From: a virus
Virus record (IMG/VR): IMGVR_UViG_3300031555_006030
Length of the DNA stretch: 64,000 nucleotides
Reading direction: 5' to 3' (one strand)
Positions 6,371 to 59,125 of the stretch are shown piece after piece (the first letter of the stretch is position 1; each line of letters begins with the position of its first letter). Both the position numbers and the translations under genes were made by a program. The notes beneath the pieces are model-generated. The model had not been told where the DNA came from. It saw only the letters and a program-made list of their open reading frames with translations, and made no database searches.

Positions 6371-7582
6371 ATGGCAAAATATCATTGTGATAAATGCAAT
6401 AAAGAATTAGAAGAAGTTAATTTTTATAAATATCGAGACGGTAGTTATGTAGAATTGTGTAAAAAATGTTTAACAATGCATGTGGATGTTTTTGATCCAA
6501 GTACTTTTACATGGCTATTAGAAAAACTCGATGTTCCTTATATTCCACAAGAATGGAATACGGTTATTGAAAAGAAAATGGCGAAAAAGCCTGATGCGCC
6601 AATTTCACATTCCGCTGTTTTTGGATCTTACTTATCGAAAACAAAACTAAAATAGTGGAAAGACTTTTATTGGGCAGATAATGAAAAAATATAGGAAATG
6701 TATTTTTAGCAAAGCGCCTAGGCGTCTGCGGAAAAAGCTGAACTTGATGCAATGTATCAAGAGCAATTTGAATCTGGCTAGATTTCTGAAGCATAGTATA
6801 AAACTCTTACATCCCCCAAAGCGCGTAACGATTAGATGATGAGTATGCTAGCGGCGCATGGCCCTTATCTAGGAGAAAATAATCCATATGATGAAACTCA
6901 ATTTCTTGATGATGCGGAGATTCCTGATCCTGCAGCACACATGACTCAAGAAGAAAAGATTACTTTTGCAATGAAGTGGGGTAAGTTTTATAAGCCAAGT
7001 GAATGGGTTGAACTTGAAACAGATTATCAAAAGATGAAGAAGTCTTTTGATATTTAGGACGCAGACTCTGAGAATACTTTAATCCTTTTGTGTAAAACGA
7101 ATTTAAAAGCAAATCAAGCTATTGATTGCGGAGATATTGAAGGATTCCAAAAATTGTCTAAAGTGTCTGAGTCATTACGTAAATCAGCAAAATTCACTGC
7201 GGCGCAAAATAAAGAGCAAAAAGGCGACTTTGTTGATTCTGTTGGAGAACTTATAGCTATATGTGAACGAGATGGCTTTATTCCACGTTTTGCAACAGAT
7301 ATTCCTCAGGATAAAGTTGATATGACTTTAAAAGATATGAATGAATATGTGCGAAAGTTAGTTACTCAAGATTTAGGATTTGGACAACAAATTGAGGACT
7401 CGTTGAAAAAGATTATGATTCAAAATGAAATGAATAAAGAAGCCGAACGCCGCCAAGAGGAAGAAGGAGAAGATTATGATCCTTATGCGCCTACGGAACT
7501 TGATGATGAAGATATTATTGAACACTATGATAATCTTCTAGAAATGAGAAAGAAAGACCGAGATCTCTTGGAGAAAGAGTGA
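6371..7582 (+). CDS. hypothetical protein with an N-terminal zinc ribbon (possibly a terminase small subunit or DNA-binding protein)
   Basis: ORFs at 6371, 6836 and 7088 are in one frame and are separated only by TAG codons (about seven). The gene ends in TGA and overlaps the terL ATG. Confidence 0.45.
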
Positions 7583-7586
7583 TATT

Positions 7587-8206
7587 ATGGCAGTTCAAGA
7601 TTTAATTAATCTCGCTCTTGAAGGGGGCTAGAAAAAGATTGGTATTTCTGAAGAGCGAATAAGAGTTTAGATTCCAATAATTCGTTAGTATGTAGCTTAT
7701 TGGCGTGAGTACCCAGATATGTTTGTAGAGTTTCTTTGTGGTTCTAATCCAGAGAACTTTTCACTATTCTTTTATTAGCGTCTTTTTTTGCGCGCAGTTA
7801 TGCGTCATAGATATGCTTATGCCACTTTCCCTCGTGCATATTCAAAGAGCTTCTTATCAGTACTTGTTTTAATGCTTAGATGCATACTTTATCCCGGTAG
7901 TCATTTATTCGTTACTACAGGCGGCAAAGAGTAGGCGGCGGGTATTGCTAAAGAAAAGTCAGATGAGCTTTGTAAGTTAATACCTGGTTTAAAAAATGAA
8001 CTAGATATGACAAGAGGTAAAACTAAAACTAGTAAAGATAATATTGAATTAATATTCAAAAATGGTTCAAAATTAGACATTATGGCTGCGCGCCAGTCCT
8101 CTCGTGGTAAACGTGCTACTGGTGGTTTAATGGAGGAATGTATTCTTATAGACTAGACCTTGTTGAATGAAGTAATAATCCCTAGATACTGGGGCGCAGC
8201 AGCGTG
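7587..8206 (+). CDS. terL: terminase large subunit, ATPase domain (exon 1; includes TAG codons)
   Basis: It has a deviant Walker A PRAYSKS and the pattern RGKRATGGLMEECILID (Arg finger and Walker B). The reading frame ends at TGA 8204-8206 and is followed by GC-rich non-coding RNA. Confidence 0.6.
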
Positions 8207-9293
8207 AGCTACTGTGGAAAACGGTGTGAACCTGTGATACAAGGGTGTGGATCTTCGGATCTGCTAACGGGGAACAGTCAAAAACCCCGTGCCAAGCTTC
8301 ACCGTATGGTGTTGAAGGTGTAGAGACTATCCGGGATGAGTGTACCGGTTAGGGTGGAATTGATCACCACTCGAAGCGCACCGCAACTAAAAATTTTGGT
8401 CAAATTTTGATAATATTGCTACTTTAAATTTTATATATTCATGAAAGGGAATAATCCCGGGATAGAATGTAAATCAAAAGGAGTAATATTATGTGGAAAA
8501 AATTTTATTTTGAAGGTGTTGAAACAGATTATAGTGTTTCAACAGAAGGGGTAGTAAGAAAAGACACAACAGACTATATTTTATCACAATCTTCTTAGCA
8601 GGATTATAAATTTGTAACTTTGCTTATAGCAGGAAAACAAAAAAGAATGAGAGTGCATAGAATGGTGGCTGAAACTTTTCTTGACAATCCAGAAAAGAAA
8701 CCTTATGTAAATCATATTAATGGTAATCGTGGAGATAATAATGTTGAGAATTTAGAATGGGTTACTCCCTCAGAAAATACTCAGCATGCTATAGAAACTG
8801 GTTTATTCATGTCCGGTAGGGCAAGACCAGTAATTCAATATAATCTTGACGGTGTGCAGATGGCAACCTTTGAAAGTGTCTCTGAGGCAGCTCGTCAAAC
8901 AGGCGGTTCACAAAGCAAAATCACAATGTGTTGCAGACGTCAAAGATAGACAGCTAATGATTACCAATGGAGATATTATGATGATATTCAAGATGTGACC
9001 AAAATTGAGAAAAAATTTATAACGGGCAAAAAGGTTGCTCAATGTGATGAAAATGGAAATATTTTGGCAATTTTTCCAAGTTTCAAAGAAGCGGCGAGAG
9101 CCGTAGATGGGACCTCTTCAGCCATTAGCAGAGTATGCAGTGGTATGAATATTCGTCACAAAGGTTATAAATGGAAATTAGTTGATGATATAGTCCAAGA
9201 AGACATCTAATAGATGTTTTCTTGACCATGAACGTAGACCGAAGACTTTCAGACGGCTCTCGTATAGAAGATGAGACTGTTAACAAATCGTAG
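8207..9293 (+). mobile_element. putative group I intron interrupting terL (boundaries approximate)
   Basis: It begins with a ~250-nt stretch of ~50% GC with stops in all frames and a GATCTTCGGATC tetraloop hairpin. An R-like GTAGAGACTATCC at 8320-8332 and an S-like GATATAGTCC at 9187-9196 can form P7 (GACUAU paired with AUAGUC). The HNH ORF lies between them. Confidence 0.5.
8490..9210 (+). CDS. HNH homing endonuclease (NUMOD4 N-terminus, HNH_3 core, two IENR/NUMOD-like C-terminal repeats)
   Basis: The sequence reads YSVSTEGVV...HRMVAETFL...VNHINGNRGDNNVENLEWVTPSENTQHA. The repeats FESVSEAARQTG and FPSFKEAARAVDG follow. Two in-frame TAG codons; the gene ends in TAA. Confidence 0.7.
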
Positions 9294-10373
9294 ATTTATG
9301 TGACTACCGCAGGATGGAAAAACAGCTTCGCATACGAGAAACTTATAGAACTTCTTATTCGTCAGATTATCTACCCTGATGAAGCAGTTGTTATGGGTGG
9401 AACTTGGCGCATTCCTGTTATGGAAAAATTATTGAAGAAAAGTTTTATTGAGGAATTAAAGCTTGATGGAACTTATAATGATGCATCTTTTAGCCGTGAA
9501 TATGAGTCAGAGTGGTCTGGAGATGCCGAAAATGCGTTTTTCTCTGCAGAAAAGTTTGATAAACATCGTCAATTATTACAGCCAGAATATGAATTCTCTG
9601 GCCGCACCTCTAAAAATGGTTATTATGTATTAGGAATTGACGTTGGCCGTTTTAAATGCACTACAGAGGTATGTGTATTTAAAGTTACTCCATAGATATA
9701 GGGCGCTGCACATAAATCTTTAGTTAATCTCTATTCTTATGAAGCAGAGGACTTTGAAGCGCAAGCTATTAAAATTAAGAAGTTATTTTATAAATACAAG
9801 GCGCGTATTGCGGCAATAGACGCGAATGGTCTTGGCGCAGGTCTAATTGACTTTATGACAAAAGGTCAAGAAGATCCAGAAACAGGAGAATATTTACCTC
9901 CTTTTGGAGTTGAAGGCGGAACCTCAGACGAGTTTAATGAATAGTATAAGAAAATTAAGGGTCCCGGTGTTGAGGAAAATGCTATGTATTTAATTAAAGC
10001 TAATGCGCCTATTAATACAGAAGCACATACTTATGTTCAAACTCAATTAGTTGGTGGTAAAATTAATTTATTAATAGATGAAACTTAGGCTAAAACTAAA
10101 TTGATGACAACTAAGATGGGATAGGAAATGGATGCGGCCAAGCGCGCAGAGTATCTAAAACCTTTTACTTTAACCACCATCTTGCGCGAGCAATTATTAA
10201 ATTTAGTAGAAGACAACGAAGGTGTTAATATTATTCTTAAGTAGTCTTCAAGAAGTATTCCCAAAGATAAATTTTCTGCTTTTGAATATGGTTTATATTA
10301 TATTAAACAAGAGGAAGATCGTAGTAGAAAAAGAAAGAAAAGAAACATATCTGAAATGATGTTCTTCTCGTAA
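9294..10373 (+). CDS. terL: terminase large subunit, nuclease domain (exon 2)
   Basis: IYVTTAGWKNSFAY matches the motif III consensus (iiSTPnG.NhFY). YVLGIDVGR marks the start of the RNase-H-like nuclease domain. It is in frame with ORF 9300, spans several TAG codons and ends in TAA at 10371. Confidence 0.6.
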
Positions 10374-10445
10374 CAAAATTTCGGACAATTTTAAATAAAC
10401 TATATTACACATTTTTTATATAACAATAGTAAAGGAGTGATACAA

Positions 10446-10802
10446 GTGAAAGCAAGTCGCGGAGAGATTAAAATTTGTGATATTTTAACTGAAGCGGGTG
10501 TCTCTTTTACTGAAGAATATTCATTTCCAGATCTTGTTGGACATACTAAAACCCCTTTGCGTTTTGATTTTGCGGTTTTAGATGATGATGGAGAAGTTGA
10601 TTTTTTAATTGAATATCAAGGTATCCAACATTATGAGCCCAAGTCTAAATTTGGCGGTGTAGCAGGTTTACGCCAATAGCAATACTATGATATGTTAAAA
10701 AGGGAATATTGTAAAAAACACAATATTCCCTTGGTTTTAATTCCTTACTATGACGAAGGAAGAATAAACTATGACTATATTTTTAAGGCTGCTGGTTATT
10801 GA
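10446..10802 (+). CDS. small PD-(D/E)xK/DUF559-like nuclease-fold protein
   Basis: The pattern DFAVLDDDGEVDFLIEYQGIQHY is present. One TAG codon; ends in TGA. Confidence 0.4.
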
Positions 10803-32144: not shown

Positions 32145-34352
32145 ATGGCAAGCAACAAAGAAATGAAAGCGCGTATTGTTAATAAACACGATATTGAAGC
32201 TAATTGGCTTAAGGCAGTTAATTTTATTCCTTTGTAGGGAGAAATTATTATTTATGATGCCGAAACTTCTTCTGATAGTCTAGAAGGAACGGGTAGAATA
32301 GAAAGAATAACACTGCCTAGGTTTAAAGTTGGAGATGGAGTTAGCACTGTTAACAATTTGCCTTTTACTAAAACAGAATTGGCTTATTACAAAGAAGATG
32401 TTGACAATAAAACAAGTGAAGTTTTTATAAAAAACACTGATGATTATTACAAAGACGGATCTATTTCTGGTTTTAAAGTTCAAGATAATCAAACTACTAT
32501 TGTTGCTGAGGATAAGCACGGAGGTCATGATTATGGACAAGACTTGCACCATACAGATTCATAGATTGAAGTATCTACGCAGTTTCTTAAGTTAAGTAAT
32601 GAAAGAAAAGATGAAATCTGGATACGCGATGAAAACGATTATTTCACAGGTGAAACTGAATATTATACAAATAATAGTTCGATAGAAATGAAGAACGGTA
32701 ATGTTTCTATTGAGACTTCAGGAAAGCTTTTATATAATAATAATGAAGTAGGAACAGCAGGTAAAAAAACTTCTAATGAAGGAGAGGTTTTTAACGACTA
32801 TAAGTATAATAAAGCTTCTGGATTTAGATCTCACGCAGAGGGTTCTCAAACTCAAGCAACTAAAGACAATACTCATGCAGAGGGTTTTAGAACGCATGCA
32901 GCTAACAATAACGCGCATGCTGAAGGTAGCGGAACAACCGCAAGTGGAATATCCTCTCATGCAGAAGGTAATGAATCGATAGCTATGGGTAATTATTCTC
33001 ATGCAGAAGGTATAAAAACTCAAGCAAACCAAACAAGCGCGCATGCAGAAGGAGATAATACCCTTGCTAATGGAGAAGGTTCTCATGCAGAAGGTATATT
33101 GTCTGAGGCTGTTGGACCAGCCTCTCATGCCGAAGGATCTTCAACCAAAGCTATGGGAGTAGCGTCCCACACAGAAGGCAGAGATACGGTTGCAAAGGGC
33201 GAAGCAGCTCATGCAGAAGGACATTCTACTATTGCAGAAGGAAAAGAATCTCATGCGGGAGGATTGAACGCGAGAGCGGTTGGAGATTATTCTTTTGCTC
33301 ATGGTATTCGAGCAGAGGCGCTTGGTAAAAATTCTTATGCTTTGGGTGCAGACACAGAAGCCACAGCGGATCATGCAATAGCAATGGGTAATAAAACCTT
33401 GGCTAGTGGAACAGAATCTATGTCTATTGGTTATGGAACGAGTGCACTAGGAAATCACTCTTTTGCGCAAGGTGCGTTAACTCTAGCAAGAGGAGAAAAT
33501 TCTATTGCTACTGGTTAGGGAACGGTTGCGGCTAAAGATAATTCTTATGCTGGTGGTTATGGAGAATATGGTGATACTTATACTTTTTATAAAGTATCTG
33601 ACAATATTGGAGTATGCCAAAATGTTGAAAATGATTTTATAAATGGATTAGAGTATCCAGTTGTTCTTCATTATCCCAATGCTGTTACGATGTGTATAAT
33701 GACACCTCATCATGTATATGATGAGACTGCTGGTTTCCATTATATGGAGACACAATGTAGCTTTAGCAGATCCTTAAAGGAAGAGGTAAGCTCTTTTACA
33801 GTTATAAAAGCAACCATAGCCAATCATAATAATTCTTTTGCTCATGGAGTTAGAGTTGAAACAGGTAGAGATAATCAAGCAGTATTCGGACAATATAACA
33901 AAGTAGATTCTTCCGCTTTGTTTATTATTGGTAATGGAGATAATAACACCCCTAAAAACGCTTTTGTGATTACTGATGATAATAAAGCTTATATAGATGA
34001 CAAACAAATCCTTGTAAAAGGAGATGTTCCTACTAAAATTAGTGAATTTACAGACGCTAAAGACTATGTAGAAAAAGTAAAGAATTCTGCAGATGCTCGA
34101 GAGTCTGTTACAATAGAAAGAGGTTTTATGTCATCTGAAATGAGTAAATCTTTAGTATTTATAGATCCAGATAAAGTTGAATTACGCAGTAGTGTTTCAT
34201 TAGTAGATCCTGGTAGCTCAAAAACTCCTTATTCAACAATTCTTTCTGTCGGTGAAAAAGTAATGATAAATGACAAAGAAGTTACAACTGTTGATATGGT
34301 TCCAACAATTTCATTAGCTCTTGCTAGTGATATTGAAAGTTTATTTAATTAA
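32145..34352 (+). CDS. tail fiber/receptor-binding protein paralog 1 with S-H-A-E-G beta-roll repeats
   Basis: ORFs 32358, 32688 and 33690 are in frame with the ATG at 32145. It has more than 10 consecutive 14-residue repeats of the form HAEGxxTxAxGxxS. It ends with the QAVFGQYN...ALFIIGNGxxNTPKNAF module. Confidence 0.6.
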
Positions 34353-57935: not shown

Positions 57936-59125
57936 TCACGTAAATCCAGTATTCCTACTGGCGTAGACTATCTCTTACTTATCTTTGAGAGTAAGATAAG
58001 TACACCCATTTCCCGCCTCGTACCAATAGAGGAGGTACTTCCGATCTCACTCGGAATAGTCGTTACAGGGTTTTAAAGGATAACTTAATTTTTCATCATA
58101 AAAACATTCTCCAACCTTAATGCGGCGAACAGTTTCTTCGGAAGCTTTTACCATTTCTGCAATTTCTCTATTGGAAAAAGAAGTAGTTAACAAAAGCTCT
58201 TTAATTTTATTCGCGCGCTGTTCATTTGCAGATATTTTTCGGATTGGATAAGAAGGATATAATCCTTTTCTTAATGTTCCAGCATTAATTTTTTTAACAG
58301 TGGAATATCCTAATCCTAGCATTCTTGCAATTTCTGCTAAGCTATAAGTTGAATTTAATAGAAGTTCAATTAATTCATCATAGTCTTTATCCTCTTTATA
58401 GTATTTACAAAGTGGATATTCTTCATTTTCATCAAAATAATAAATACCATGATTTAGAGAAGAAATGAAAGAGGCGCTTGCGCCATACTTAATAGTAATA
58501 TCTAAAAATGGTGTTTTATCTTTGATGAGTTGCTTCATGTCTTGGATTTCTTCTTTTGTCCAGGTTCTAGCATGCTCTCGAGAATCTCCTCCCCAAGAAA
58601 CATTATATCCTTTGCCAGTACTGCAATGAGATTCTAATTTTTTAACCCAATATTTTTCTCTTTCATTTACTTCTTGGATATCTTCTGTGTAGAGCTTCTC
58701 AAGTAAAGATATTTCAAAAGCGGCTTCTCCATATTGTCTTATCTTTTGATGAATTAAATTATTATAAGATGAAGCCTTCTCATTGAAAGCGCATGAGCGA
58801 TGTTCTCTTACTCTTCTATTAAAATTGTTTGTTTGACCAACATATTTATGTTGATTAATTTTGTTTGTGTAGCAGTAAATATAATACATACCATTTCTCT
58901 CCTTTTTAATATTATATTACTGTTATCATTATCCTTTAATTTCCCACGGGATTGTCTGATAACAGTTAGGATATTTTTTGTATCCTCACTGTTATATAAG
59001 ATTTCCCCGTTAGCATTTATCTAAATTTGACCTTAATTTTAAAAATTTTTTAGATAAATACCCCACTGGTTAGTGGAAAAGGTGTATAGGGGCAAGTTTT
59101 TGTTTACCCCATTTGCGGGCCAATA
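57936..59125 (-). mobile_element. putative group I intron in dnaE (boundaries approximate)
   Basis: An S-like AAGAGATAGTCTACGCC at 57961-57977 and an R-like ACGACTATTCC at 58054-58065 can form P7 (GACUAU paired with AUAGUC). A P8-like hairpin CTTATCTT...AAGATAAG lies between them. The GIY-YIG ORF sits inside, and there are stops in all frames. Confidence 0.5.
58047..58889 (-). CDS. GIY-YIG homing endonuclease (intron-encoded; standard code)
   Basis: The N-terminus reads YYIYCYTNKINQHKYVGQTNNFNRRVREH; the C-terminus has a helix-turn-helix. Confidence 0.7.
   Translation of the reverse strand: MYYIYCYTNKINQHKYVGQTNNFNRRVREHRSCAFNEKASSYNNLIHQKIRQYGEAAFEISLLEKLYTEDIQEVNEREKYWVKKLESHCSTGKGYNVSWGGDSREHARTWTKEEIQDMKQLIKDKTPFLDITIKYGASASFISSLNHGIYYFDENEEYPLCKYYKEDKDYDELIELLLNSTYSLAEIARMLGLGYSTVKKINAGTLRKGLYPSYPIRKISANEQRANKIKELLLTTSFSNREIAEMVKASEETVRRIKVGECFYDEKLSYPLKPCNDYSE

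Follow-up and report, generated by a model that had tools for sequence, protein, structure and literature searches.

The terminase gene and its joined product

IMG/VR virus record IMGVR_UViG_3300031555_006030, of which a stretch of 64,000 nucleotides (nt; hereafter the window) was analysed, carries a gene for the terminase large subunit (TerL) that is interrupted by 1,041 nt at positions 8184–9224, within which lies an open reading frame (ORF) for an HNH homing endonuclease (8491–9210); all three are on the plus strand. With TAG read as sense, the TerL frame starts at ATG 7587 and continues in translation to a TGA at 8205–8207, and a second long TerL-like frame, open from 9225 at the latest, runs to the stop TAA 10371–10373. 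Homologues are colinear with the first translation up to ...NEVIIP and with the second from TMNVDRR on, which places exon 1 at 7587–8183 (199 codons) and exon 2 at 9225–10373 (382 codons plus TAA); the stretch 8184–8207 is made up of seven read-through codons and the TGA. The insertion point lies between codons 199 and 200, within the TerL ATPase domain.

Joining 7587–8183 to 9225–10373, with TAG read as glutamine (Gln), yields a protein of 581 amino acids (aa). A search of a large protein collection returned more than 30 uninterrupted homologues, all exactly 581 aa long and 94–97% identical over their full length, which run unbroken over the junction NEVIIP/TMNVDRR (the slash marks the junction here and below), reading ...LNEVIIPTMNVDRRL... 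at this point. Five intron-less DNA alleles (L001–L005) align to the joined exons at 82% nt identity and with no gap at the junction; around the insertion site L005 reads ...GAAGTAATCATACCTACCATGAACGTAGACC..., and the ligated junction expected from our boundaries is ...GTAATAATCCCT/ACCATGAACG, also written GAAGTAATAATCCCT/ACCATGAACGTAGAC. The exons are under purifying selection: the 94–97% aa identity is found at about 77–82% nt identity.

A first-pass annotation, made from the sequence alone, had proposed that TerL is split by a group I intron and had placed the exon junctions near 8200 and 9293, some 1.1 kb apart. The frame does break after about 8183–8206 and resume downstream, and the joined protein is colinear with intact homologues across the junction, as had been expected. 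However, exon 1 ends at 8183 rather than 8206 and exon 2 starts at 9225 rather than about 9294, so the uninterrupted homologues show the earlier 5′ junction to be off by 17–23 nt and the 3′ junction by 69 nt, shorten the gap to 1,041 nt, and assign the 23 residues TMNVDRRLSDGSRIEDETVNKSQ to exon 2. The start of the insert had been described as GC-rich and non-coding: there is indeed no convincing ORF in the roughly 300 nt of 8184–8490, but at 43% G+C, compared with 36% in the flanks, this stretch is only mildly GC-rich.

Exon 1 matches phrog_15503 and phrog_2 (terminase large subunit), exon 2 matches phrog_24618 and phrog_2, and the joined protein matches phrog_2 over residues 56–437 (E = 1.7e-19) and phrog_5909 (E = 1.3e-7). 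Exon 2 also shares 68% nt identity over a 185-nt stretch with the gene annotated as putative TerL in Geobacillus virus E3, where the portal gene adjoins on the 3′ side. The TerL assignment relies on the phrog_2 and phrog_5909 matches and on this stretch beside a portal gene; searches of TerL against Pfam, NCBIfam and PDB sequences gave zero matches, and its AlphaFold model (mean pLDDT 44) was unusable for fold comparison.

Six in-frame TAG codons fall in exon 1 and seven in exon 2, and at these 13 positions Gln is aligned in 30–34 of the 34 colinear homologues; on this comparison the phage reads TAG as Gln (code 15). ARAGORN found no tRNA gene in the 64-kb window, and hence no amber suppressor, despite heavy use of sense TAG in TerL and the HNH gene, so the suppressor must sit elsewhere in the genome or escape detection.

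A group I fold in the intervening RNA

The intervening RNA has a selected fold with group I topology and obeys the group I splice-site rules, its core helices P3, P4, P6, P7, P8 and P9 following in canonical order with the P3/P7 pseudoknot. We aligned 21 distinct alleles from other metagenomes with the ORF trimmed and drew by hand a structure of 73 pairs in 13 helices. Standard pairs occupy 97.8% of the 1,470 pair cells, compared with 40–45% when partners are slid by one to three columns, and 44 of the 73 pairs show compensatory change on both sides. For covariation the score was 0.456, whereas the slid controls gave about 0.07, and no shuffle out of 500 came up to it. Four compensatory pairs fall in P3 and three in P8, where a U-A pair has become C-G in L012 (AACCAA/UUGGUU) across 800 nt of ORF, and P7 is invariant in all 21 alleles, as expected for the catalytic site. 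With only the alignment as input, RNAalifold—which is unable to predict the pseudoknotted P7—recovered P1, P2, P3, P4, P7.1, P7.2, P8, P9 and two extra hairpins, hpA and hpB; folded as a single sequence, the ORF-trimmed intron of the window forms most of these helices, with a minimum free energy z-score of −3.4.

At the 5′ splice site, exon CCCU (8180–8183) pairs with a guide GGGG (8191–8194) as P1, with a U8183·G8191 wobble that sets T8183 as the last exon base; P1 is invariant in the 21 alleles. At the 3′ splice site the insert ends on omega G (9224), a G in all alleles. P2 (8196–8203/8208–8215), in which all eight pairs change on both sides, has a GNRA loop, GUGA (8204–8207), that provides the in-frame TGA (8205–8207) ending the exon 1 read-through. 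The long-range P3 joins 8222–8228 (CGGUGUG) to 8377–8383, with 100% of cells paired and four of its seven pairs changing on both sides, and the Rfam alignment of the ORF-deleted sibling L158 agrees with it; an alternative P3 using a second GGUGUG copy (8244–8249) is disfavoured, covariation backing the first copy. Between the P3 5′ strand and J3/4 stand hpA (8231–8233/8242–8244; two of three pairs change on both sides) and the UUCG-looped hpB (8247–8253/8258–8264; five of seven). J3/4 (UAA) and P4 together span 8265–8289, P4 itself (8268–8272/8285–8289) closing a 12-nt loop, AACAGUCAAAAA. In L015 the GG/CC of P4 is replaced by UA/UA, and the loop reads AA[C/G]AGUCAA[A/G]AA in all alleles, invariant but for two linked positions that occur as C..A or G..G only.

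The outer P6 (8291–8292, GC, with 8318–8319, GU) was assigned from the Rfam alignment of L158 and leads into P6a (8297–8303/8308–8314), six of whose seven pairs change on both sides. The R element and P7 5′ strand (8320–8329, comprising G8323, a bulged A8324 and G8325–A8329) are invariant in the 21 alleles and align to the Rfam P7 consensus; P7 pairs 8323 and 8325–8329 with 9191–9196 (UAGUCC) over 6 bp, and G8325–C9195 is the presumed guanosine-binding pair. Both P7 and J8/7 (9184–9190, GAUGAUA) align to the Rfam consensus AGACUA/GAUAUAGUC. P7.1 (8331–8334/8345–8348, loop GAUGAGUGUA), all of whose pairs change on both sides, and P7.2 (8352–8357/8367–8372), with three of six, are IA-type extensions and place the predicted intron in class IA. 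Extra P7.1 and P7.2 helices between P7 and the P3 3′ strand are reportedly what Michel and Westhof used in 1990 to mark subgroup IA, and both are named as class features elsewhere (PMC3984707).

After the P3 3′ strand and a single C (8384), P8 joins 8385–8390 (AACUAA) to 9178–9183 (UUAGUU), closing over the ORF with a loop of 787 nt (8391–9177). J8/7 and P7′ follow, and then P9 (9199–9207/9213–9221), in which six of nine pairs covary and whose loop holds the ORF stop TAA (9208–9210). The whole ribozyme 3′ domain (9178–9224) is kept exactly in ORF-deleted siblings. Several features picked out at first pass recur in this structure: the GATCTTCGGATC hairpin, at 8250–8261, is part of hpB, and the R-like GTAGAGACTATCC (from 8320) and S-like GATATAGTCC (from 9187) form the 6-bp P7 with its bulged A.

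The last 14 nt of the intron, 9211–9224 (TAGATGTTTTCTTG; also L006 1284–1297), were considered as a td-like 3′ intron end. That candidate was dropped, as in phage T4 the identical stretch belongs to td exon 1 and stops 4 nt short of the 5′ splice site of td; sibling introns read differently here, and the identity is therefore probably chance.

The endonuclease gene and the insert in relatives

The ORF in the P8 loop (ATG 8491, TAA 9208–9210; 239 aa) is intact and has GGAG at 8480–8483, 7 nt upstream of its ATG. Its Pfam matches are HNH_3 (38 bits, cut-off 24.8), NUMOD1 (34 bits), an I-HmuI NUMOD-like domain (I-HmuI_NUMOD-like, 31 bits) and a weak NUMOD4; it also matches phrog_59 (E = 8e-49) and, over residues 7–162, the I-HmuI structure 1U3E (E = 4.8e-12). 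Judged by these similarities, the intron encodes an I-HmuI-like HNH homing endonuclease. As had been noticed earlier, the ORF sits in the P8 position and its 3′ end overlaps the S element: it lies between the P8 strands, and its last 11 codons (WKLVDDIVQEDI) double as P8′, J8/7, P7′ and the P9 5′ strand. ORFs that overlap intron core sequence are known (PMC3984707).

The two TAG codons reported for the endonuclease are also there, exactly two in frame, at 8596–8598 and 8947–8949, where relatives have CAA or CAG. TAG positions vary between alleles and their count runs from 0 (the standard-code L015, L079, L128, L150 and L155) to 9 (L145), which indicates that the HNH gene was recoded in situ, together with its host genome.

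About 30 nt ahead of the HNH start, the P8 loop has a small hairpin (8447–8458, GGGAAUAAUCCC) that is kept in all ORF-bearing alleles, the L015 version being GGGAUAUAAUCCC, and may control endonuclease expression. A weak sigma-70-like match (8441–8468) overlaps it; promoter-like matches in this region are no commoner than in shuffles, and a promoter and terminator scan of 7400–10500 gave counts not above those in shuffled sequence.

The HNH protein has 932 homologues, through which we reached contigs of 126–143 kb with the same three-part arrangement. A degenerate P4-region pattern found 13 viral and 14 metagenome loci, all in TerL homologues, while an exact-pattern search of IMG/VR for the window's own P4 region gave no match and isolate phages yielded only marginal blastn matches to the 5′ intron. 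In more than 20 distinct alleles the insert occupies one codon boundary (...[VI]IIP/T[MT]N...), although the exon residues flanking the junction visibly vary; every one of these alleles has T at −1 and G as the last base of the insert, and in every one removal of the insert restores the frame. The R-element 16-mer GAAGGTGTAGAGACTA occurs in more than 120 IMG/VR contigs, surrounded—a few chance matches aside—by group I P, Q and S elements; one of these contigs, L034, scores 63 bits on the Rfam group I model RF00028. Among intron-bearing alleles the upstream exon is unusually uniform over just 12–18 nt or so (AATGAAGTAATAATCCCT), and no long co-conversion tract was found, identity beyond that distance being not above that in comparisons with intron-less alleles. 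Labels of the metagenome-assembled genomes that include related contigs conflict, most naming Bacilli, Erysipelotrichaceae, Anaeroplasmatales or Clostridia, others Treponema, Bacteroidales, Prevotella or Methanobrevibacter.

Natural ORF-less or ORF-deleted forms of five kinds occupy the same site and retain the ribozyme: L042 and L146 (292 nt), L149 (260 nt), L158 (295 nt), L152 (334 nt) and L160 (318 nt). The ORF-deleted L152, L158 and L160 still have the end of the ORF, the part that forms the ribozyme 3′ core. In L152 the ORF has shrunk to ATGATTACATGGAAA/ATAGTTGAAGATATAGTCC, an N-terminal MxxWK fused to a C-terminal ...WKIVEDIV, apparently by deletion between two TGGAAA repeats; just the ORF 3′ end is left in L158 and L160. 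These three look like snapshots of a cycle of homing-endonuclease gene gain, decay and loss.

Further TerL insertions were seen in standard-code and other relatives (L015 3220–5720; also L016–L018, L145/L147 and L158). A second TerL intron begins 26 codons beyond the first, directly behind ...KSQIYV; the L015 copy carries a GIY-YIG ORF, scores 95.6 bits on RF00028 and is followed by another HNH ORF. Up to three introns are found in one TerL gene among the relatives.

Alternative readings and known systems

We read 8184–9224 as a mobile, phage-type (IA) group I intron, lying inside TerL and carrying an HNH endonuclease ORF in its P8 loop, and put the probability of this reading at about 0.92. 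It agrees with the first-pass proposal, and is founded on the boundaries and restored frame, on helices that covary and obey the splice-site rules, and on the likeness of the ORF to I-HmuI.

Several points nevertheless weigh against it. Splicing of the TerL intron is predicted by analogy with established group I chemistry, and certain phage introns depend on cellular factors for it (PMC11878797). P1 has just 4–5 bp, and no convincing P10 candidate was found. Two unusual hairpins between P3 and P4 depart from the textbook core, and a Watson-Crick P5 is absent in 21 of 21 alleles, P4 closing the 12-nt loop instead. A non-canonical mini-stem in place of P5 is possible; a P5 in trans, pairing the hpA loop (UGAY) with GUCA of the P4 loop, was rejected as unsupported, the variants AGAA and AGGC breaking the pairing. 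Between alleles the HNH gene shows 80–91% nt identity and the exons 73–79%; divergence so close to that of the exons points to long residence rather than recent spread, and recent homing is not evident. Lastly, Rfam scans of 7500–10500, 8150–8480 and the whole window gave no match at any threshold, so the Rfam test suggested at first pass for 8150–9300 was negative, and the ORF-less siblings stay below the RF00028 gathering threshold of 50 bits (L158 best, at 31.2 bits, E = 4.5e-5; L042 at 13.8 bits).

The missing Rfam match in the window is expected, because the 787-nt P8 loop holding the ORF splits the two halves of the core. In the sibling L158 the alignment to RF00028 is full-length, with P1, P2, P3, P6, P7, P3′, P8, J8/7, P7′ and P9 as in the hand-drawn structure. 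Controls also stay below 50 bits, namely the T4 td intron, proven by experiment and scanned with its ORF included (42.5 bits), and an intron of Geobacillus virus E3 (48.7 bits); the split core and these controls together make the Rfam test uninformative here, and by the td and E3 scores the 50-bit cut-off is too strict for such introns.

Among the alternatives, the one that survives best, though we consider it very improbable, is that TerL is truly split into an N-terminal ATPase fragment (206 aa) and a C-terminal one (381 aa, from ATG 9228) that are translated apart and assemble as proteins, with a free-standing HNH gene between them and an RNA fold that serves some other purpose, such as regulation. 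Gene callers do divide the region in every relative into three ORFs, of 206, 239 and 381 aa; in the window exon 2 has an ATG as its second codon; and the silence of Rfam there would fit. However, 9228 has no Shine-Dalgarno sequence before it, and the Met there is internal in uninterrupted homologues and Leu in some. The intron-bearing L150, L155 and L164 have Thr and no ATG at the start of exon 2, so separate translation of the C-terminal part is not a general solution. The break also falls inside the ATPase domain, ORF-less siblings keep a non-coding insert of 260–330 nt at exactly this point, which is sensible only if the insert is removed, and the intervening RNA has a canonical group I core complete with splice-site U·G pair and terminal G.

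Slightly less probable still is a decayed, splicing-incompetent intron in a TerL pseudogene of a defective phage, or an assembly artefact. Such decay would account for the lack of a Watson-Crick P5, for the mismatches of the window in P2 (C·A) and P6a (two U·U) and for the absence of an Rfam match. Yet the same architecture has been assembled independently in dozens of samples, on contigs of 126–143 kb; the exons are under purifying selection and the HNH ORF is intact; the core pairs and junction nucleotides are all intact in the window; and the lack of P5 is common to all 21 alleles and thus a family trait, not decay. An intein, a group II intron or an insertion sequence, for which nothing speaks beyond the gene being interrupted, is scarcely credible and already contradicted by the sequence, in which the frame is not kept (TGA after seven codons), there is no reverse transcriptase or transposase gene, the HNH gene is the only ORF with a family match and the fold is that of a group I intron.

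For the group I intron favoured here, catalysis, the timing of endonuclease production and homing are predicted to run as follows. The intron would be transcribed within the TerL mRNA and fold into the P3–P9 core, exon CCCU and guide GGGG pairing as P1. An external guanosine bound at G8325–C9195 in P7 would attack after U8183; omega G9224 would then take the same guanosine site and the exons would be ligated, giving the 581-aa TerL. The endonuclease would be translated from its own ribosome-binding site and, because its ORF holds two TAG codons, made only while TAG-to-Gln decoding is active. It would presumably nick or cut the intron-less TerL of co-infecting relatives near the insertion site, and repair would copy the intron in.

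Much of this has precedents: a group I intron with an endonuclease gene of its own is a familiar type of selfish element in phage genes. The terL gene of Lactobacillus phage LL-H also has a group I intron. Terminases figure in a list of conserved phage genes that make good targets for homing endonucleases (PMC3984707). TerL group I introns occur in Bacillus phages (Bastillevirinae), some with phrog_59 HNH ORFs and some two or three per gene, and phrog_59, an HNH family with NUMOD4 and I-HmuI NUMOD-like domains, is the commonest intron-encoded family among those described there (PMC11878797). The window shares with them the group I intron in TerL, an IA-like core and a phrog_59 ORF, and its relative L015 shares the multiplicity of two to three introns per gene; in contrast, Pfam and NCBIfam gave no match for the TerL of the window, the phage is an uncultured one from animal guts that reads TAG as Gln, and the intron belongs to a subfamily without a Watson-Crick P5, with splicing predicted from sequence. 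I-HmuI, from the SPO1 DNA-polymerase intron (1U3E), is of the same HNH family and also lies within a phage group I intron, but there the host gene is a DNA polymerase; the protein in the window has 239 aa and an extra C-terminal NUMOD-like module, and its nicking and target site are predictions.

The T4 td intron (IA2, encoding I-TevI) resembles that of the window in its P, Q, R and S elements (ACGGGGAAC...CCCGUGC, ACGACUA, GAUAUAGUC), in P7.1 and P7.2, in an in-frame stop soon after the 5′ splice site and in its sub-threshold Rfam score. It differs in having a GIY-YIG ORF in the P6 loop, where the window has HNH in P8, and in its short P5 and a P3-to-P4 stretch free of hairpins. The E3 intron is built like that of the window, with P2 and P3 followed by GUGAAC-hpA-GGUGU-hpB-GCUAA-P4 and then P7.1 and P7.2; RF00028 makes the same P3 assignment in it, and the P3–P4 hairpins push the model's P4 out of register. 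Unlike the window's intron it interrupts the tape-measure gene, has a normal P5 and lacks an ORF, the TerL of E3 itself being uninterrupted. Both hpA and hpB are present in E3 and in phage introns such as L060, L101 and L137, and are thus a trait of a wider intron clade; neither these hairpins nor the P5-less P4 loop could be matched to any named group I subgroup.

Recoded Agate phages, whose genomes of about 127–154 kb likewise have close standard-code relatives, also carry an intron endonuclease containing a reassigned stop codon, and their authors predict that recoding delays its production until the code switch (Borges et al., bioRxiv 10.1101/2021.08.26.457843). There TGA is read as Trp and the gene is early, whereas here TAG is read as Gln and TerL is a late gene. 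TerL group I introns, HNH ORFs of the same PHROG family and a recoded intron endonuclease were therefore all known already, and the P5-less core and the blindness of Rfam to this family are the only points of some novelty.

A more far-reaching reading, which we regard as possible but doubtful, is that this intron family forms a structurally distinct phage group I clade missed by current covariance models. Such a clade would have an invariant 12-nt loop instead of a Watson-Crick P5, two extra hairpins forming a three-way junction with P3, one fixed TerL codon boundary across divergent animal-gut phages and an endonuclease recoded in step with the host genome (0 to 9 TAG), and the genetic code could act as a homing barrier between standard-code and recoded phages.

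Other observations were made in passing. Directly downstream of TerL in the window, a small gene (10437–10802; 118 aa in relatives) has one in-frame TAG, and intron-less relatives have the gene too. A DNA polymerase III alpha (DnaE-like) gene on the minus strand of the window probably holds a second group I intron, of about 1,160 nt, at 59105–57946. Exon 1 of that gene ends ...GIGPQMG with T59106, P1 would be GGGGU/GCCCC and omega G would be 57946; there are P/Q-like elements (GCTAACGGGGAAATC...CAATCCCGTG), R (GTAACGACTA) and S (AGAGATAGTC), and a GIY-YIG ORF (58889–58047; 280 aa, Pfam E = 7e-9) in the P6 position that runs through P7 into P7.1. The joined frame, ...QMG/YLRDSFSIIHALAYSF..., has Pfam matches to DNA_pol3_alpha, finger and HHH_6, neither the DnaE-like gene nor its GIY-YIG ORF contains TAG, and Rfam did not report this intron. 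In Geobacillus virus E3 (NC_029073, about 33514–33800; L167 1215–1505) the tape-measure gene is annotated as separate N- and C-terminal coding sequences, and the gap holds the unannotated, ORF-less group I intron of window-like architecture described above (48.7 bits on RF00028, E = 2e-11).

RF00028 misses a whole family of phage introns because P8 holds an ORF, extra elements are inserted between P3 and P4, and P5 is lacking; intron counts in viromes are therefore underestimates. In this widespread gut-phage lineage TerL is routinely called as ORFs of 206, 239 and 381 aa, which in the window should give way to the join of 7587–8183 and 9225–10373; unrecognised introns truncate TerL, the standard phylogenetic marker of tailed phages. 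An endonuclease gene with reassigned stop codons would be expressible only after the phage has switched its code, and homing of the intron into a standard-code relative would leave the HNH product truncated; code change and the spread of selfish elements are thereby linked in a way that can be tested.

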